In this document: piece by piece, positions 13,673-25,077 of the stretch
Numbering within the stretch: position 1 is the stretch's first letter
Layout of the letters: each line of letters begins with the position of its first letter
Virus record (IMG/VR): IMGVR_UViG_3300005512_000158
Coordinates: 1-34,384 of that record
Source of the DNA: a virus
Taxonomy: Duplodnaviria; Caudoviricetes
Length of the DNA stretch: 34,384 nt
Direction: 5' to 3' (one strand)
The notes under the pieces: generated by a model
What the model saw: only the letters and a program-made list of their open reading frames with translations
Databases searched by the model: none
Told to the model about the DNA's origin: nothing
Made by a program: the position numbers and the translations under genes

Positions 13673-14839
13673 CTATTTGTAAAGGCTAATATTTGCAGCT
13701 TCGTCTTTAAGCCGTTCGCGGCTAATATGCACGTAAACCATAGTGGTTTTAATATCTGCGTGGCCAAGTATGCGCTGCAGCACTTCAACTTTACCACCTG
13801 CATTTAAAAAGCCAGTAGCATACGTGTGGCGCGCTGTGTGGAAGGTGAGCTGCTTCTTTATTCCTGCAGCTTTAGCCACCACCTTTAAACAGCGGTTTAT
13901 GTATTGATCTGTTTGAGTATCGAAAAAGTACTTACCACTTAGATGGTGCACCCACTGCTGCCAGTTTTCTGGTAGTGGTATCTGCACGCGCTTACTTTGT
14001 CCACTTGTTTTTTGCGGCACCAGCACCAGTACATTATCGTAAACATCATCTACACCGACATTATGAATATCCGAAATACGCAAACCACCACAGTGGCAGC
14101 TAAATAAGTACTTTTTTAATGCGTAATGTGTCCCTTTATCTAAGCGTTTGCTGCTTAGTAGCTGCACCAGCTTTGCCACTTCGGAGTTATTCAAGTATTC
14201 GCGGTGGCCATTAATGTGTTTTATCTTAAAATCTTGGTATGGGTTTGGCGCGCCATACTTCTTACACATTTGAAGCATTACACGCTTAGCCATACGGTGG
14301 TGCTTCATTCTGCTATTATTATTGTAACGCTGGCGCAGCATTGTATCGAAGCGCTTTACCAGTTCTGGTGTTACCTGCATAATTGTAAGCTGTGGCATAA
14401 ATTCCTGCAGCAGCTTCTGGTTTGTTCTGTATTGCTTTAAAGTGCTGGCAGCAAATATGCCGCTGTGCAGTTCTAAAAAATGGCCATAAAATTCCTGCAC
14501 ACTTACAGCATCATTACCAGAAGCGTAAATGGCTTTAAACGTTTGCACATCTAGTGGCTGCTGTTTTATCCGGTAATTAAAAAAGGTTTGCTGCACCTTA
14601 TTAATTATGCCGCCCAGTTCTAGGTTTGCATTATCTACAGCTTTGCGGCTAAGAGGTGCTTTTTTATTGTAAACCACCAGCTGTTTTTCTTGGTCCCAAT
14701 TTAACTGGTGCAGCATTTGCCCAGTACTTAGTACCACTTTTTTCTTGTTTATGTAGCACTTTAGGTGCAGTGGTTTTATATCGCTGGTTTTACAGCGATC
14801 TGTACGGAGTATGAAACGTGCAGTATAACGTGGTACCAT
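13673..14839 (-). CDS. int: Phage integrase, tyrosine recombinase of Bacteroidota type (arm-binding + SAM-like + catalytic domains)
   Basis: GLRISD, KT, FHTARHTYAT, LGHADIKTTMVY; beta-rich N-terminal arm domain; likely start MVPRY at 14839 because the ORF-track extension runs into att repeats. Confidence 0.93.
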   Translation of the reverse strand: MVPRYTARFILRTDRCKTSDIKPLHLKCYINKKKVVLSTGQMLHQLNWDQEKQLVVYNKKAPLSRKAVDNANLELGGIINKVQQTFFNYRIKQQPLDVQTFKAIYASGNDAVSVQEFYGHFLELHSGIFAASTLKQYRTNQKLLQEFMPQLTIMQVTPELVKRFDTMLRQRYNNNSRMKHHRMAKRVMLQMCKKYGAPNPYQDFKIKHINGHREYLNNSEVAKLVQLLSSKRLDKGTHYALKKYLFSCHCGGLRISDIHNVGVDDVYDNVLVLVPQKTSGQSKRVQIPLPENWQQWVHHLSGKYFFDTQTDQYINRCLKVVAKAAGIKKQLTFHTARHTYATGFLNAGGKVEVLQRILGHADIKTTMVYVHISRERLKDEAANISLYK

Positions 14840-14844
14840 ATTTT

Positions 14845-15010
14845 GCGGTGTGTGTCGTTTGTGTGTCGGTAAAAACCTAAAGCAGCACAGCACTTTTGTA
14901 CTTAAAAAAAGAAAAGCCGCTTACAAAGCGGCTTTTTTGTGGTACCAGCTGTACCACAAAAAGCGCTTAAACCGTACTTAAATGCAGCGGTGTGTGTCGT
15001 TTGTGTGTCG
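14845..15010. other. Putative attP: two identical 24-bp direct repeats flanking a 12-bp inverted-repeat core
   Basis: GCGGTGTGTGTCGTTTGTGTGTCG at 14845-14868 and 14987-15010; core TTTTTGTGGTAC-cagct-GTACCACAAAAA at 14934-14962. Confidence 0.75.
14912..14938. terminator. Bidirectional terminator-like hairpin within the att region
   Basis: AAAAGCCGCTT-aca-AAGCGGCTTTT with A/T tracts on both sides. Confidence 0.65.
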
Positions 15011-20769: not shown

Positions 20770-20810
20770 GTAATTATATTATGAGTAAGCAGGTTATTAC
20801 ATTTAAAAAC

Positions 20811-20843
20811 CACCACTGTAAGTAATTGAAAAACAAACAGTAA
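20811..20843 (+). repeat. 33-bp perfect direct repeat, copy 1
   Basis: CACCACTGTAAGTAATTGAAAAACAAACAGTAA, identical to 23608-23640. Confidence 0.95.
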
Positions 20844-20847
20844 ACTG

Positions 20848-21645
20848 ATGAACACCAACAAGTACATAAACGATTTTAAGGTGCACTTAGAGTGCGCAAA
20901 CTACAGCAGCAGAACAGTAAGCACATACTGTTCTTTACTTAAGCGGTTTTTAAATACCGGATGGCAGGCAGATACGCCAAAGCAGATAAACACCAACCAG
21001 CTTAAGCTGTACATAGCAAGGCAGAACTGCACCAGCACTATGCGCCAGGTACACGGAATGCTTAACCACTTTTACCAGTGTTTAGGGCAGCCGCGTAAAA
21101 TGAAGTACATACCGTATCCAAAAAAAGAAAATAGGCTGCCAACCGTGCTGCCTAAAGAAGTGATAAACCAGAAAATAAAACAGATCACTAACGTAAAGCA
21201 CCAGTGCATTTGTATGCTGCTTTACGGCTGTGGGCTGCGCGTATCTGAAATTACCAACTTAAAGCTGGCAGATATTGACAGCAAAAGGATGGCGCTAAAA
21301 GTGGTATGCAGTAAAGGCAAAAAAGACCGACTGCTGCCGCTGCCTGCACACCTGCTGTTTAAGCTTAGGCAATACTATAGAATTTACAAACCCAGCACTT
21401 ACTTGTTTGAAGGGCAGAACCAACGCAAGTACACCACCGTAAGTGTGCAGCGCATTACTAAAAAGCACTTACAGTGCAACCCACATACCTTAAGGCATTC
21501 TTACGCCACGCATAGCCACGAAAGCGGTACACCACTAGCTGTTCTGCAGCAGCTTCTTGGCCATAGCAATATTAAAACCACTATGGTTTACCTGCATATT
21601 AGTAATGCACAAATGCTTAACGCTGTAAGCCCGTTGGCGGCTTAA
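20848..21645 (+). CDS. Second tyrosine recombinase, IntI/XerD-related (SAM_4-like N-terminus, no arm domain)
   Basis: NYSSRTVSTY; LLYGCGLRVSE; KGKKDR; HTLRHSYATH; LLGHSNIKTTMVY; all catalytic residues R-K-H-R-H-Y present. Confidence 0.92.
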   Translation: MNTNKYINDFKVHLECANYSSRTVSTYCSLLKRFLNTGWQADTPKQINTNQLKLYIARQNCTSTMRQVHGMLNHFYQCLGQPRKMKYIPYPKKENRLPTVLPKEVINQKIKQITNVKHQCICMLLYGCGLRVSEITNLKLADIDSKRMALKVVCSKGKKDRLLPLPAHLLFKLRQYYRIYKPSTYLFEGQNQRKYTTVSVQRITKKHLQCNPHTLRHSYATHSHESGTPLAVLQQLLGHSNIKTTMVYLHISNAQMLNAVSPLAA

Positions 21646-21831: not shown

Positions 21832-22053
21832 AGACAACTTCGGACAAATAATAAACACTTAAAAATCAATTAATTACATCTAAAAACTGTCCGAAATACC
21901 GCCCGATGTTGTCCGATGTTGTCCGAAGGTAAAAAAAACCACTTCGGACAACTTCGGACATAAAAACGTGGTTTGTCCGATGTGCTTAACTATTTAAGCA
22001 TTTGATTATTAATACGTTACTGATTTTGTCCGATGTGTCCGATGTGTCCGATG
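21832..22053. repeat. Iteron cluster (TGTCCGA/TCGGACA x10), putative replication origin
   Basis: TCGGACA at 21840, 21944, 21954; TGTCCGA at 21888, 21910, 21920, 21974, 22027, 22036, 22045; AT-rich spacers; non-coding. Confidence 0.75.
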
Positions 22054-22140
22054 CCTTTTTAAGCATCTGCCGCTTAGTTATGTAAAATTGTGTATATTGG
22101 TTGTGCTGAATTTTTACAAAAACTTAAAAAACTAGACACT

Positions 22141-22413
22141 ATGAACATCAAAGCAGAATTAATACTTAGACCCTGCACACCAGAAGATCTGGTGCACTGG
22201 TACGAAGGCGAACGCACCACGCTTAGCCGCCAACGGTTTTACGTGCGCACTAATAATAAGCTAGAGTGCTACACCATTAGCCACTTTAGTGATAAACGCA
22301 CCGTGCTGCAGTTTATGAATGAAAACCGCCTATTTATACCAGCCACAGAAGATTTAGCCGGTACACACACTGGCACCGTACTGCAAGATATAGCAGAATA
22401 TGCAGCAGCTTAA
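22141..22413 (+). CDS. Hypothetical protein whose stop codon lies in the first AAC junction
   Basis: ORF 22090..22413; ATG at 22141 follows an A-rich leader. Confidence 0.65.
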   Translation: MNIKAELILRPCTPEDLVHWYEGERTTLSRQRFYVRTNNKLECYTISHFSDKRTVLQFMNENRLFIPATEDLAGTHTGTVLQDIAEYAAA

Positions 22414-22463
22414 CGGTTAGTGTAAACGCCTGTACTTGTATGGCGTTTTACACATTGTTGTGC
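22408..22463 (+). other. attC-like site 1 (56 bp)
   Basis: GCTTAAC ... GTGTAAACGCC / GGCGTTTTACAC stem with a 1-nt bulge ... GTTGTGC. Confidence 0.65.
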
Positions 22464-23172
22464 ATAGTAGGCGGATTTAAAACAGAAAACTAAATGAAAG
22501 TACTAAACTTATACAGCGGAATAGGGGGCAACCGAAAAGAGTGGAATGGCCCAAATTTAGATATTACGGCCATTGAATACGATGAACGTATAGCAGCTAT
22601 TTATAAAGACTTATATCCTAAGGATAATGTAATAGTTGGTGATGCTCACGAGTATTTGCTTAATCATTATGAAGAATACGACTTTATCTGGGCTTCACCG
22701 CCTTGCCCCACACATTCGGTTACAAATCACTTTCTAAATGCACAAGGCGTAAAACGATACCCTGATATGGGATTGTATCAAGAAATAATCCTGCTGCAAA
22801 CATTCTTTAAAGGAAAGTATGTAGTTGAAAATGTAAAGCCATACTATGAGCCACTAATTAAACCACAAGAAAGCGGTAGGCATTATTTCTGGGCAAATTT
22901 TAAGATACCTAAATTAAAAGTGGAAAGTAGTATTGGAAGAATGGGGCCTGTAAAAAGTAAAGGGGGGGCAAGGACTGAAGGGGATAATCACCATAAATTG
23001 GGTTTTGATTTAAGCAAATACGATTATCCAAATAAAAAGAAGCTGCTAAATAACTGTGTTGCTCCCGAAATTGGAAAGGCAATATTTGAAGCTGCACTTG
23101 GAATATATCAGGCAAACAACATTAAGCAAGTAGGTTTATTTGATGCACTCAGTTAAGCCTATTATGCACAAC
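22457..23172 (+). mobile_element. IR-bounded cassette carrying the methyltransferase
   Basis: GTTGTGCATAGTAGGC (22457-22472) and GCCTATTATGCACAAC (23157-23172) are 15/16 complementary. Confidence 0.7.
22494..23156 (+). CDS. DNA cytosine-5 methyltransferase (compact)
   Basis: Motif I NLYSGIGG, motif IV WASPPC, motif VI VVENV, motif X-like NCVAP. Confidence 0.88.
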   Translation: MKVLNLYSGIGGNRKEWNGPNLDITAIEYDERIAAIYKDLYPKDNVIVGDAHEYLLNHYEEYDFIWASPPCPTHSVTNHFLNAQGVKRYPDMGLYQEIILLQTFFKGKYVVENVKPYYEPLIKPQESGRHYFWANFKIPKLKVESSIGRMGPVKSKGGARTEGDNHHKLGFDLSKYDYPNKKKLLNNCVAPEIGKAIFEAALGIYQANNIKQVGLFDALS

Positions 23173-23475
23173 GGCCACAGCTATGGGTAGCGCGTACCAC
23201 AACAACGAAACGAGATACTAACCTTAAAATTTAGAGTGCGATGGAAAGCAAATTTGATGTAGTTGCAGCATGGTGTAGATGCAATAAGATTGTTCTGGCA
23301 ATGACAACCGATGAATACCAAAGGAGTGGGAAGCCAGAGATTGATGCCTTTTTTGATATGGGGTACAAAATTGGAAGAACAACTAAAGCGGTTGCTCGAA
23401 ACTTGTTCGGGTGCGAGTGCGCAAGTCAAAACGCTTCCACGAGTGATGAAGCGTTACCTATGGCTGATGTTGTAG
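23166..23475 (+). other. attC-like site 2 expanded to 310 bp, with coding sequence in its loop
   Basis: GCACAAC-GG ... CAGCTATGGGTAGCGC (23178-23193) / GCGTTACCTATGGCTG (23451-23466) ... GTTGTAG. Confidence 0.6.
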
Positions 23476-23582
23476 GGCAAAGCGAACTGTTAGTTTGCGA
23501 ACATCTTGAAAGCGATTTGGTTGAGATAAGGAAAGGCGTTAAATTGTGTAAATGTTCGGTATGGATAGAAGAAGCAAACTAA
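23241..23582 (+). CDS. Hypothetical protein spanning two IR-bounded modules
   Basis: 113 aa; crosses the 23469 junction as ALPMADVVGQSELL; C-terminal C.H...CKC mini-domain. Confidence 0.65.
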   Translation: MESKFDVVAAWCRCNKIVLAMTTDEYQRSGKPEIDAFFDMGYKIGRTTKAVARNLFGCECASQNASTSDEALPMADVVGQSELLVCEHLESDLVEIRKGVKLCKCSVWIEEAN

Positions 23583-23593
23583 TTGCGTACAAC
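23469..23593 (+). mobile_element. Small IR-bounded cassette encoding the C-terminus of ORF 23241
   Basis: GTTGTAGGGCAA[agcgaactg]TTAGTTTGC pairs with GCAAACTAATTGCGTACAAC (23574-23593). Confidence 0.6.
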
Positions 23594-23607
23594 GGTAGGA
23601 TAAAAAA

Positions 23608-23678
23608 CACCACTGTAAGTAATTGAAAAACAAACAGTAAGAACACCCAAACCAACAAGTATTTAAAGTGCTTTAAGG
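23608..23678 (+). repeat. 33-bp direct repeat, copy 2, plus degenerate remnant of the recombinase 5' end
   Basis: 23608-23640 identical to 20811-20843; then ACCAACAAGTAtttaaagtgcTTTAAGG versus ACCAACAAGTAcataaacgatTTTAAGG in the recombinase gene. Confidence 0.88.
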
Positions 23679-23704
23679 ACCAGCATATTTAGCTGGTCCT
23701 TTTT
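23675..23704 (+). terminator. Intrinsic terminator closing the cassette array; overlaps a GTCCTTTT promoter motif
   Basis: AAGGACCAGC-atattta-GCTGGTCCTT followed by Ts. Confidence 0.75.
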
Positions 23705-23751: not shown

Positions 23752-25077
23752 ATGGCAGCAGGCAAGGAACCAGCACACAACTACACCGACCTATTTAACC
23801 AGCACCCACGTTTACCAGAGCACAGAACCTTAACTGCTTACTTTCGGTATTTACACAGTATTTATCCAGATACGCTTAGCAACACATTTAAAAAGTGGTG
23901 GTACAAAACCAATGGCGGTGCACCAGTAGCAGATACTAATACTGCAGCGCCCACCAAGGCAGATAAGCAGGTGTGGGACGAAAGCACCAACACTGCTGTG
24001 TGGCAATACGATGGCACAGCGGCCATACACACTTTACAAGATGCACTGGCATATAGTAAGGTGGATTTAGATACCTGGGAAGTAGAGCGCCACGTATTTA
24101 ATAGCTGGGAAGTAACTATGAAAGACCCAGCAGGCTTACCACTTAGGCGCGTAAACGTGCAGGTAAAAGTTTGGTTTAAAAAGCGCGTGGATGCTGGTGT
24201 AGATTGGCAGCAGGTGTTTGATAAATTACGTGCAGAACTCAAACCAAGCAAACCAAAACCAGTACCAGGTAATGGCATTGGTGTAGTAGGTACGGCAGAT
24301 TTTCATTTTGGTGCCTATGTAGATGATCTGCTGCGCAGCGATAAATTTAATATTGAAGTACTGGTGCGTTACTTAGAACAAGCAGCCGACATTATAAACG
24401 CACAGCAATACAAAGAGGTGCACCTTTGCCTGCTTGGCGATTTTATCGAAAGCTTTACCGGACTAAACCACCGCAACAGCTGGAAAGGACTTGGTAAAGG
24501 AATGTATGGTGTAAACAGCGTTGTGCTATGTTTCGAGATATTGCTAGAAAGCTTTGTGCAGCGCATTAATAATGTAGCAGCCATTTACATTGTAAGCGGC
24601 AACCACGATAGAGTTACCAGCGAAAAAGAAAACGATGCTAAAGGCGAAGTGGCAGAACTTCTGGCATACCTATTTAAAAAGCAGCTGCCAACTATTGATG
24701 TGCAATACCACCCAATGGTGCTAAGCGTTACTATTGATAATATACAGTATGTATTAACCCACGGCCATTTACCATTTGCGCAAAAAGAACTAAGTAAAGT
24801 ACTGTTTGACTATGGTAAACAAGGTATTTATAATGTACTGGTGCAAGGCCACAAGCATACCAGGCACGTAAAGAAAACAGTAAAGCGTAAGCAGTACGAG
24901 TGGAACACCACCAGCGTGGTGCAGTTAGATGAAGCAGATTACCGTGCCATTATTCTACCGCCATTGTTTACTGGCAATTTTTACAGCGAAGCGTTAGGCT
25001 TTAGCAGCAGCGCAGGGTTTAGCATTATGCAAAATAATGGGCGCGGCAAACTCAATTACTTTGATTATTGCTTATAG
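23752..25077 (+). CDS. Calcineurin-like metallophosphoesterase with N-terminal extension
   Basis: ADFHFG, LLGD, GNHD, THGH and GHKH motifs. Confidence 0.88.
   Translation: MAAGKEPAHNYTDLFNQHPRLPEHRTLTAYFRYLHSIYPDTLSNTFKKWWYKTNGGAPVADTNTAAPTKADKQVWDESTNTAVWQYDGTAAIHTLQDALAYSKVDLDTWEVERHVFNSWEVTMKDPAGLPLRRVNVQVKVWFKKRVDAGVDWQQVFDKLRAELKPSKPKPVPGNGIGVVGTADFHFGAYVDDLLRSDKFNIEVLVRYLEQAADIINAQQYKEVHLCLLGDFIESFTGLNHRNSWKGLGKGMYGVNSVVLCFEILLESFVQRINNVAAIYIVSGNHDRVTSEKENDAKGEVAELLAYLFKKQLPTIDVQYHPMVLSVTIDNIQYVLTHGHLPFAQKELSKVLFDYGKQGIYNVLVQGHKHTRHVKKTVKRKQYEWNTTSVVQLDEADYRAIILPPLFTGNFYSEALGFSSSAGFSIMQNNGRGKLNYFDYCL

Follow-up and report, generated by a model that had tools for sequence, protein, structure and literature searches.

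Can a phage gene be assembled from two modules that are exchanged separately, and still stay in frame across the joint between them? This question is raised by a 113-codon open reading frame (ORF) in the 34,384-nt stretch of DNA analysed here (the window), which is the entire contig of a tailed phage. The earlier note on this DNA had read the ORF as crossing a recombination junction that is kept open in frame so that N-terminal and C-terminal modules can be swapped, i.e., domain shuffling rather than only whole-gene capture. Following the ORF through its module structure, its protein relatives and the arrays of other phages, we interpret the gene as probably two separately exchanged modules joined in frame at a GTT and likely translated, within an integron-like array.

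A tailed phage with a four-module array

Besides a terminase, head protease, tape measure, GH19 endolysin, holin and primase, the window encodes an arm-type integrase (13673-14893), and the phage is probably temperate. Among cultured phages, the closest relatives of its 265-aa tyrosine recombinase come from Polaribacter phage Leef_1 and Cellulophaga phage Ingeline (~35% identity), and these relatives, together with the distribution of the junction motif, make a Bacteroidota host likely. The phage-like junction pattern occurred in 21 of the 56 loci from the genome_contigs set (13 named Bacteroidota or Balneolota, 8 with other MAG labels), and GC-rich chance matches in that set lacked it. The features on which the following analysis draws are, all on the + strand:

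20848..21645, tyrosine recombinase of 265 aa (SAM_4 and Phage_integrase), without an arm-binding domain
22408..22463, hairpin module 1, short and non-coding (core 22415-22456)
22457..23172, body module 1, 716 bp with complementary ends, C5-type DNA methyltransferase
23166..23475, hairpin module 2, type B, attC-like, 310 bp with two core heptamers
23170..23172, AAC joint of body 1 and hairpin 2, main cassette exchange point with a putative crossover
23241..23582, fusion ORF of 113 aa, ATG to TAA, front codons 1-76 in the hairpin module and back codons 77-113 in the body
23241..23426, residues 1-62, C-x-C ... G-C-x-C domain (from protein relatives and predicted fold)
23469..23471, GTT joint read as Val77, the front/back re-pairing site among relatives
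23469..23593, body module 2, type A, 125 bp with complementary ends, a 9-nt bulge and a second inner stem
23591..23644, terminal AAC without closing arm, docking-like (attI-like) half site with spacing as in relatives
23601..23678, 5' copy of the recombinase gene, ATG lost, 81% identical to 20804-20881

The array thus runs from hairpin 1 through body 1, hairpin 2 and body 2 to the terminal AAC that lacks a closing arm. A parser for alternating hairpin and body modules recovered this four-module chain, found 568 bodies and 563 hairpins in 150 loci, and returned no chain of score 14 or more from 180 kb of shuffled loci, so that the array stands well beyond chance.

Several other elements of the window were noted along the way. 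All 10 copies of TGTCCGA or its complement lie within 21840-22051, just past the recombinase terminator, as an origin-like or packaging-like cluster, and Leef_1 and Ingeline_1 have other short repeats at the same position. The longest inverted repeat (13722-13783 / 21541-21602, 62 nt, 82%) corresponds to catalytic C-terminal coding sequence common to two oppositely oriented tyrosine recombinase genes. Directly 3' of the array lies a gene for a 441-aa metallophosphoesterase or exonuclease-like protein (23752-25077). A sigma-70 promoter scan of the window stayed at shuffle level (9 vs 7.3), a Bacteroidota promoter consensus gave no match there, and neither did Rfam covariance models at E up to 1; across 20 array loci, one match reached the Rfam gathering thresholds (DUF805b RNA motif, L026 4655-4690).

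Anatomy of the fusion gene

Examining the module boundaries, we confirmed the coordinates of an ORF (23241-23582) that starts in the loop of the 310-bp hairpin module, crosses the junction and ends in the 125-bp module. Hairpin module 2 is bounded by GCACAAC (from 23166) and GTTGTAG (to 23475), its arms lie at 23173-23193 and 23451-23468, and its loop holds an A-rich start region plus codons 1-70, with the ORF beginning 68 nt into the hairpin. The pairing energy of the arms is -18.1 kcal/mol for the coding strand and -12.2 kcal/mol for the other strand, against a mean of -8.1 and a best of -14.9 kcal/mol in 500 shuffles of the right arm. Since the whole 333-nt region folds no better than its shuffles (z -0.44), hairpin 2 is best described as a long-range stem with a large loop, having an asymmetric unpaired stretch after the core and no clear single bulged base in the stem.

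Read across the joint, residues 71-84 are ALPMADVVGQSELL, in which the right arm is read as ALPMAD, and the coding part of body 2 follows as VVGQSELLVCEH..CKC..AN. The C-x-H..C-x-C motif lies in the A module, as had been proposed, and the stop (TAA, 23580-23582) falls inside the closing inverted repeat. The earlier note had also claimed that this module has no in-frame start of its own, which holds for ATG and GTG; two TTG codons (L93 and L102) are present, both too late to yield the C-x-H..C-x-C motif. A caveat is the in-frame ATG of M74, within the hairpin arm 9 nt 5' of the GTT; this position is Ile in four protein relatives (P0002-P0005, see below), so that an ATG at codon 74 is not conserved. 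The identical 113-aa protein is present in two other assemblies (L126 and L127).

In body 1 the methyltransferase gene (22494-23156) has its own ATG, and contigs of run X4 match this body up to 23172 or 23174 and then diverge. The AAC of hairpin 1 overlaps the stop of an ORF at 22090-22413, and an exact copy of 22411-22461 from this hairpin occurs in a 77-nt contig of run X3. For hairpin 2, contigs of runs X4 and X6 carry the same left part and right arm around a different loop (in run X4, 178 other letters after the first bases of the ORF), which indicates that loop cargo is also variable within one hairpin shell.

Front and back halves have different partners among relatives

Searching 1.84 billion representative proteins, we obtained 21 matches, self included, and found the opposite of full-length homologues with constant partners, with none of the 20 non-self relatives being full length. 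P0002, P0003 and P0005 resemble the front half as far as residue 79-86, and P0004, found by word-indexed search, does so as far as the junction. All four have the front up to L-[PH]-[IM]-A-D-V in common, followed in each by a different, unrelated tail, with at most two residues shared with the window protein past the joint. Conversely, P0020 has the same tail (C-x-H..C-K-C..I-E-A-N) behind an unrelated front. Domain shuffling, as proposed from the sequence, is thus supported by a front that occurs with four other backs and a homologue of the back that occurs with an unrelated front.

The front is itself a unit: residues 6-62 form a separate domain with invariant C12, C14, C58 and C60, which stands alone in proteins of 62-86 aa (P0007, P0009, P0012, P0015, P0016, P0018, P0019 and P0022) and, to judge by the protein sequences alone, follows a leader and a Val joint in P0008, P0010, P0013 and P0014. 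In the AlphaFold model, residues 1-62 are confident (pLDDT over 90 for 11-60) and comprise three strands with two main helices, and confidence is poor for linker and tail; the predicted model so far leaves a joint function of the two halves unsupported. The front domain also matched weakly, in 5-6 stretches each, two very long proteins, P0006 (3588 aa) and P0011 (2126 aa).

Family and fold searches gave no assignment for the 113-aa protein: it had no match in Pfam, PHROG or NCBIfam, a best feature score of 0.75 in the ESM Atlas with no structure match above its bar, no Foldseek match in the pdb and viral sets at E up to 0.001, and a best Z of 3.1 in VIA-align. Such absent matches are no proof of a new fold. 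Searches for DNA context were nearly empty too, with the front half found in no viral contig, the whole protein found in metagenome contigs only as two copies of the window's phage, one weak 20-residue match for P0014, none for P0020, and only the protein itself in a word-indexed search with residues 74-113. The junctions of P0002-P0005, P0008, P0010, P0013, P0014 and P0020 are consequently read from protein sequence alone.

A class of fusion genes in one fixed frame

With 19 nt from the beginning of body 2 as query motif, we collected 124 viral loci with 113 distinct junctions, the window's included, and left out 5 that had under 300 nt upstream. Nearly all of the remainder (105/108) had an ATG-initiated ORF in which GTT is read as Val and is flanked on either side by 25 aa or more, and none of the 108 had such an ORF in the other two frames. 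At junctions found independently of the motif, the result depended on hairpin length: the GTT frame was open at 27 of the 34 hairpins that measured at least 150 bp (other frames 0 and 2), at 90 of 228 hairpins of 100-149 bp (other frames 11 and 47), and at 4 of 175 hairpins under 100 bp. A set of 148 fusion ORFs had a median front of 46 aa and a median back of 35 aa, with a four-ligand Cys/His pattern in 71 backs and in no front. Read-through genes of this kind also occur in the cultured phages Leef_1, Ingeline_1, hemulen6-1 and P12002L.

Start codons in the loops were preceded by an enrichment of A at -3 and at -11 to -13, which we take to be the Bacteroidota start pattern. In the body class, the inner stem past the 9-nt bulge covaries, with 8.4 of 9 positions matching a body's own end and 5.7 matching another's (49 bodies), and the tails often end in AN or SL because of this covariation. 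The frame may be kept open for the purpose of shuffling; it would also be fixed if hairpins simply supplied a start codon. A second fusion route, by read-through at AAC, was considered and rejected: it was seen at 43 of 467 junctions, and the 14 examples inspected resembled shadow frames, which stay open because TAAC closes another frame.

Whole units are exchanged at AAC

Comparing similar modules across loci, we found that linkage between neighbours has a direction. Among 166 pairs of similar hairpins, the downstream body alone was shared in 14, the upstream body alone in none, and neither in 150; among 15 pairs of similar bodies, the upstream hairpin alone was shared in 6 and the downstream hairpin alone in none. 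No case of a conserved body-plus-downstream-hairpin unit was found among these similar-module pairs. Stem scores were better on the coding strand in 482 of the 563 hairpins and on the other strand in 20, and one hairpin of the 563 was inverted.

Cultured phages gave the same direction. Across 16 arrays of cultured Flavobacterium phages, gains and losses were usually of hairpin-plus-body units joined at the upstream AAC (sniff9-1 vs sniff9-2; hemulen6-1 vs stinky9-1), with 50 distinct body-to-hairpin adjacencies for 31 bodies and 39 hairpin-to-body adjacencies for 36 hairpins. Ten bodies had more than one downstream hairpin and five had more than one upstream hairpin; body A29 in these counts is a parser merge. 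The classical polarity, in which a body travels with its downstream hairpin, is ruled out by pair linkage and by these indels. As read from these sequences, the commonest exchange point appears to be AAC, moving a hairpin with its body, and re-pairing at GTT appears less frequent. The claim of the earlier note that more than whole-gene capture takes place is accordingly supported with a qualification: half-swapping at GTT very likely occurs as an additional route, and genes mostly move whole, via AAC.

These cultured arrays have further features of their own. Those of Lillamyvirus, Muminvirus and Hattifnattvirus (L131, L348-L362) hold 8-14 cassettes with many DNA methyltransferases and differ by whole cassettes, and no recombinase is annotated within these array stretches. 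In hemulen6-1 gp014 and mumin6-1 gp013 (L131 1889-2781 and L357), a 99%-identical methyltransferase body follows different hairpin-encoded 23-aa leaders, and the bodies upstream of the two methyltransferase bodies are identical. In Polaribacter phage Freya_10 (L130 1-4962), the terminal AAC precedes the recombinase gene, and Freya isolates vary in genome length (44.0-48.9 kb) with the position of the related recombinase varying with length.

Probable re-pairing of halves at GTT

Evaluating halves separately in 169 fusion ORFs, we found 14 pairs sharing the front only, 15 sharing the back only and 2 sharing both, one of the latter being a duplicate within a contig; such pairs are not independent events. 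The set comprised the 148 fusion ORFs and 21 from genomes, the latter being the new ORFs among 57 genome_contigs matches with GC no higher than 0.45 and halves of phage-like length, so that half-length statistics on them are circular. The two assemblies with copies of the window protein were left out, and six loci (L309, L316, L327, L332, L336 and L337) that by eye were chance motif matches outside arrays were removed; these six had accounted for 7 of the 9 both-shared pairs in the initial count. Differences at the three codon positions were 38/37/113 among 14 pairs of back halves and 47/24/125 among 17 pairs of front halves, with pairs picked on DNA identity alone, and this third-position bias in both halves is an indirect sign that translation may continue across the joint. 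Taken together, re-pairing of halves at the Val joint very likely occurs in nature.

An artefact would give the same picture if mixed pairings were chimeras that metagenome assembly had created at the repeated junction sequence. Most pairs do come from metagenomic contigs, P0002-P0004 lie on 1-2 short contigs each, and in the runs examined the repeated junction motif is collapsed. However, the cultured phages Leef_1, Ingeline_1, hemulen6-1 and P12002L carry the same arrays with read-through genes, re-pairing is present among cultured phages, and many swapped halves are diverged alleles (60-95% identical) rather than copies, which leaves this explanation extremely improbable.

We also considered how precisely halves switch at the joint, a question on which it turns whether a recombinase acting at AAC alone would suffice, with chimeras arising by homologous or microhomology recombination (by phage recombinases) in the conserved ~30-40 nt of arm and body start round GTT. 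Where near-identical hairpins precede unrelated bodies (55 pairs), the identical run counted from the G of GTT has a median of 5 nt, against 4 at random, and a quarter of the pairs share 10 nt or more past GTT, against 1.4% at random. Pointing towards homologous exchange, 10 of the 14 front-only pairs belong to a single body class in which the first ~20 nt are conserved, most back-only pairs likewise lie inside one body class with a conserved start, and the hemulen and mumin leader hairpins before one methyltransferase body are homologous, with differences reaching ~40 nt into the body; units expected from GTT-to-GTT excision are also missing from the data, and inversions essentially so. Set against this are swaps with only 3-6 nt in common past the joint (L098/L063; L311 vs L319 and L334), including the 9 of 10 coding pairs with near-identical hairpins in which identity extends 4-5 nt from the G of GTT, and back-only pairs with as few as 3-4 of the last 15 nt before GTT in common. 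The window protein and P0002-P0005, with their nearly complete lack of shared residues past the joint, also count against it. Cultured phages provide one GTT-precise re-pairing, in which hairpin B6 occurs with A7 or A16 and B14 occurs with A16, the arms of B6 and B14 being unrelated. It was the only clean GTT switch among the five cultured-phage bodies with two different upstream hairpins; two of the others have closely similar hairpins and two differ into the first 40-60 nt of the body, and these four fit homologous recombination or simple drift. Weighing both sides, we regard an AAC-only recombinase as unlikely.

A different explanation accepts the joints and denies them a purpose: hairpins would be reusable start-and-leader elements added at cassette birth, the fixed frame would only keep cargo translated, and two-part proteins would be an unselected by-product. 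In Vibrio arrays, near-identical attC repeats flank unrelated genes. In line with such a role, the great majority of similar-hairpin pairs in our comparison have unrelated neighbours on both sides, many of the hairpins in these pairs being non-coding, identical leaders of 15-25 aa stand before many unrelated cargoes, and the back half of the window protein is unstructured in the model. Opposed to it, mature bodies change their hairpin too, as in the 15 pairs with a common back and unrelated fronts; fronts of ~45 aa are under codon-position constraint; and the window's front is, by prediction, a whole folded domain and no mere leader. We consider this explanation unlikely, and continue with the reading in which halves are exchanged at GTT as separate modules.

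A candidate recombinase and a proposed mechanism

The 265-aa tyrosine recombinase is the candidate cassette recombinase. Its catalytic motifs are present (GLRVSE, KGKKDR, HTLRHS, LLGHS and TMVYL). The IntI insertion is absent, with the window enzyme and 12 array-associated relatives lacking ~31 and ~11 residues of IntI1, residues 224-262 of IntI4 staying unaligned with the window recombinase, and a TIGR02249 score of 154.8 that lies below the cut-off of 265. Recombinase matches fell within the flanks examined in 20 of 347 sequences, and in 10 of the 16 distinct other contigs with such a match the start of the recombinase gene follows the final AAC of the array at a distance of 40-54 nt. In the window the intact gene has a displaced position, on the upstream side of the array, and at the docking-like site there is the ATG-less copy of the gene's 5' end, followed by a terminator-like stem (23675-23701). 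The order of array and recombinase in the window is permuted relative to Leef_1 and Ingeline_1.

We propose that the hairpin would give the start codon and front half, and the body the back half. The coding strand would fold into an attC-like hairpin, and the short IntI-like recombinase would cut it at AAC. In integrons, the bottom strand is cut within AAC; the geometry here would be that of the integron bottom strand with the genes turned round, and owing to this reversed geometry genes would usually move whole. A rarer exchange would take place at GTT, at the second hairpin foot, with the same enzyme likely acting on the other strand, and because long hairpins nearly always start a gene in the GTT frame, such exchange would give a protein chimera that stays in frame, in this case a small Cys4 domain joined to a tail resembling a zinc ribbon.

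Further points stand against a site-specific GTT route. Simple GTT-to-GTT excision would create body-plus-downstream-hairpin units, of which none was seen, so that AAC exchange must be assumed to break such units soon; and mixed-strand recombination predicts inverted hairpins, which are essentially absent. With these points included, the full mechanism, in which the resident recombinase does most of the re-pairing, seems reasonably probable to us. A more ambitious version holds as a tentative possibility: a dedicated protein-building machine of Bacteroidota phages whose non-IntI recombinase cuts both hairpin feet, moving whole genes at one and re-pairing halves at the other, with a selected combinatorial repertoire of small proteins drawn from a shared pool of standardised fronts (~45 aa) and backs (~35 aa, often zinc-ribbon-like) in a universal frame.

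Implications

These sequences suggest that new small proteins likely arise in these phages through recombination of gene halves. In integrons it is whole genes that are understood to move, and recombination sites engineered into coding sequence serve module shuffling (PMC7439510); a natural in-gene shuffling version appears widespread. If true, many tiny orphan genes of Bacteroidota phages would have a source in new combinations of a limited set of halves, and the question of gene birth becomes testable in cultured phage-host pairs (Leef_1, Ingeline_1, P12002L and the Lillamyvirus/Muminvirus phages). Even lacking the IntI insertion, the short recombinase may act on folded hairpins, and a natural frame-preserving site is potentially useful for domain shuffling.

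Comparison with integrons and engineered sites

Like integrons, the phage arrays consist of small accessory genes between imperfect hairpins whose core is AAC/GTT and of which one strand folds better (here the coding strand), they have a putative docking-like half site by the 5' end of an arm-less tyrosine recombinase, and whole units are gained and lost at one position. Unlike integrons, their recombinase lacks the IntI insertion and scores below the TIGR02249 cut-off, their genes are reversed relative to the hairpin, which travels with the downstream body, their loops reach 300 nt and hold start codons with coding sequence, and both hairpin feet are exchange points.

Polaribacter phage P12002L has been reported to carry a CALIN (Qi et al. 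2023, PMC9892861), in which we recognise arrays of the window's class, with read-through genes and methyltransferase cargo in common. Its attC1 is a 41-nt hairpin of the window's class and its attC2 is the array's terminal half site. In the same study, IntI1 recombination of attC1, the one hairpin of the class with a published test, was not confirmed, which counts against the proposed mechanism, and the bottom strand of attC2 recombined. Since the tested sites (L420 2680-2760; NC_028924 30012-30052) are a short hairpin and a half site, divergent directions result. On the primer table, the delivered bottom strand of attC2 appears to be the coding strand, which weakly supports the AAC polarity. 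The study treats these as ordinary attC clusters with divergent sites, and the terms "in-frame" and "start codon" are absent from its main text. Leef and Ingeline are described by Bartlau et al. (PMC8776804) without the word integron in the accessible portion, and a literature search that reached a minority of subscription journals returned no paper that presents these arrays as devices for in-frame fusion.

The nearest natural precedent, from Hocquet et al. 2012 (PMC3375312), is gcuF1-blaOXA-28 of a class 1 integron, an in-frame fusion across a cassette boundary that is changed by the integrase. That fusion is a single case built from two complete cassettes, whereas the phage class has start-less backs, a fixed frame and well over a hundred genes. 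Synthetic attC sites in protein linkers, proposed for module shuffling (Nivina et al. 2020, PMC7439510), likewise combine hairpin recombination site and translated linker in one element; they are engineered, IntI1-dependent and translated over the whole site, whereas the phage arrays are natural and, with the gene starting in the loop, only the 3' arm and core would be translated. The array of the window thus works like an integron and falls outside that class on integrase insertion and gene polarity, and what appears to distinguish it, as read from its sequences, is a natural, frame-preserving re-pairing of gene halves.
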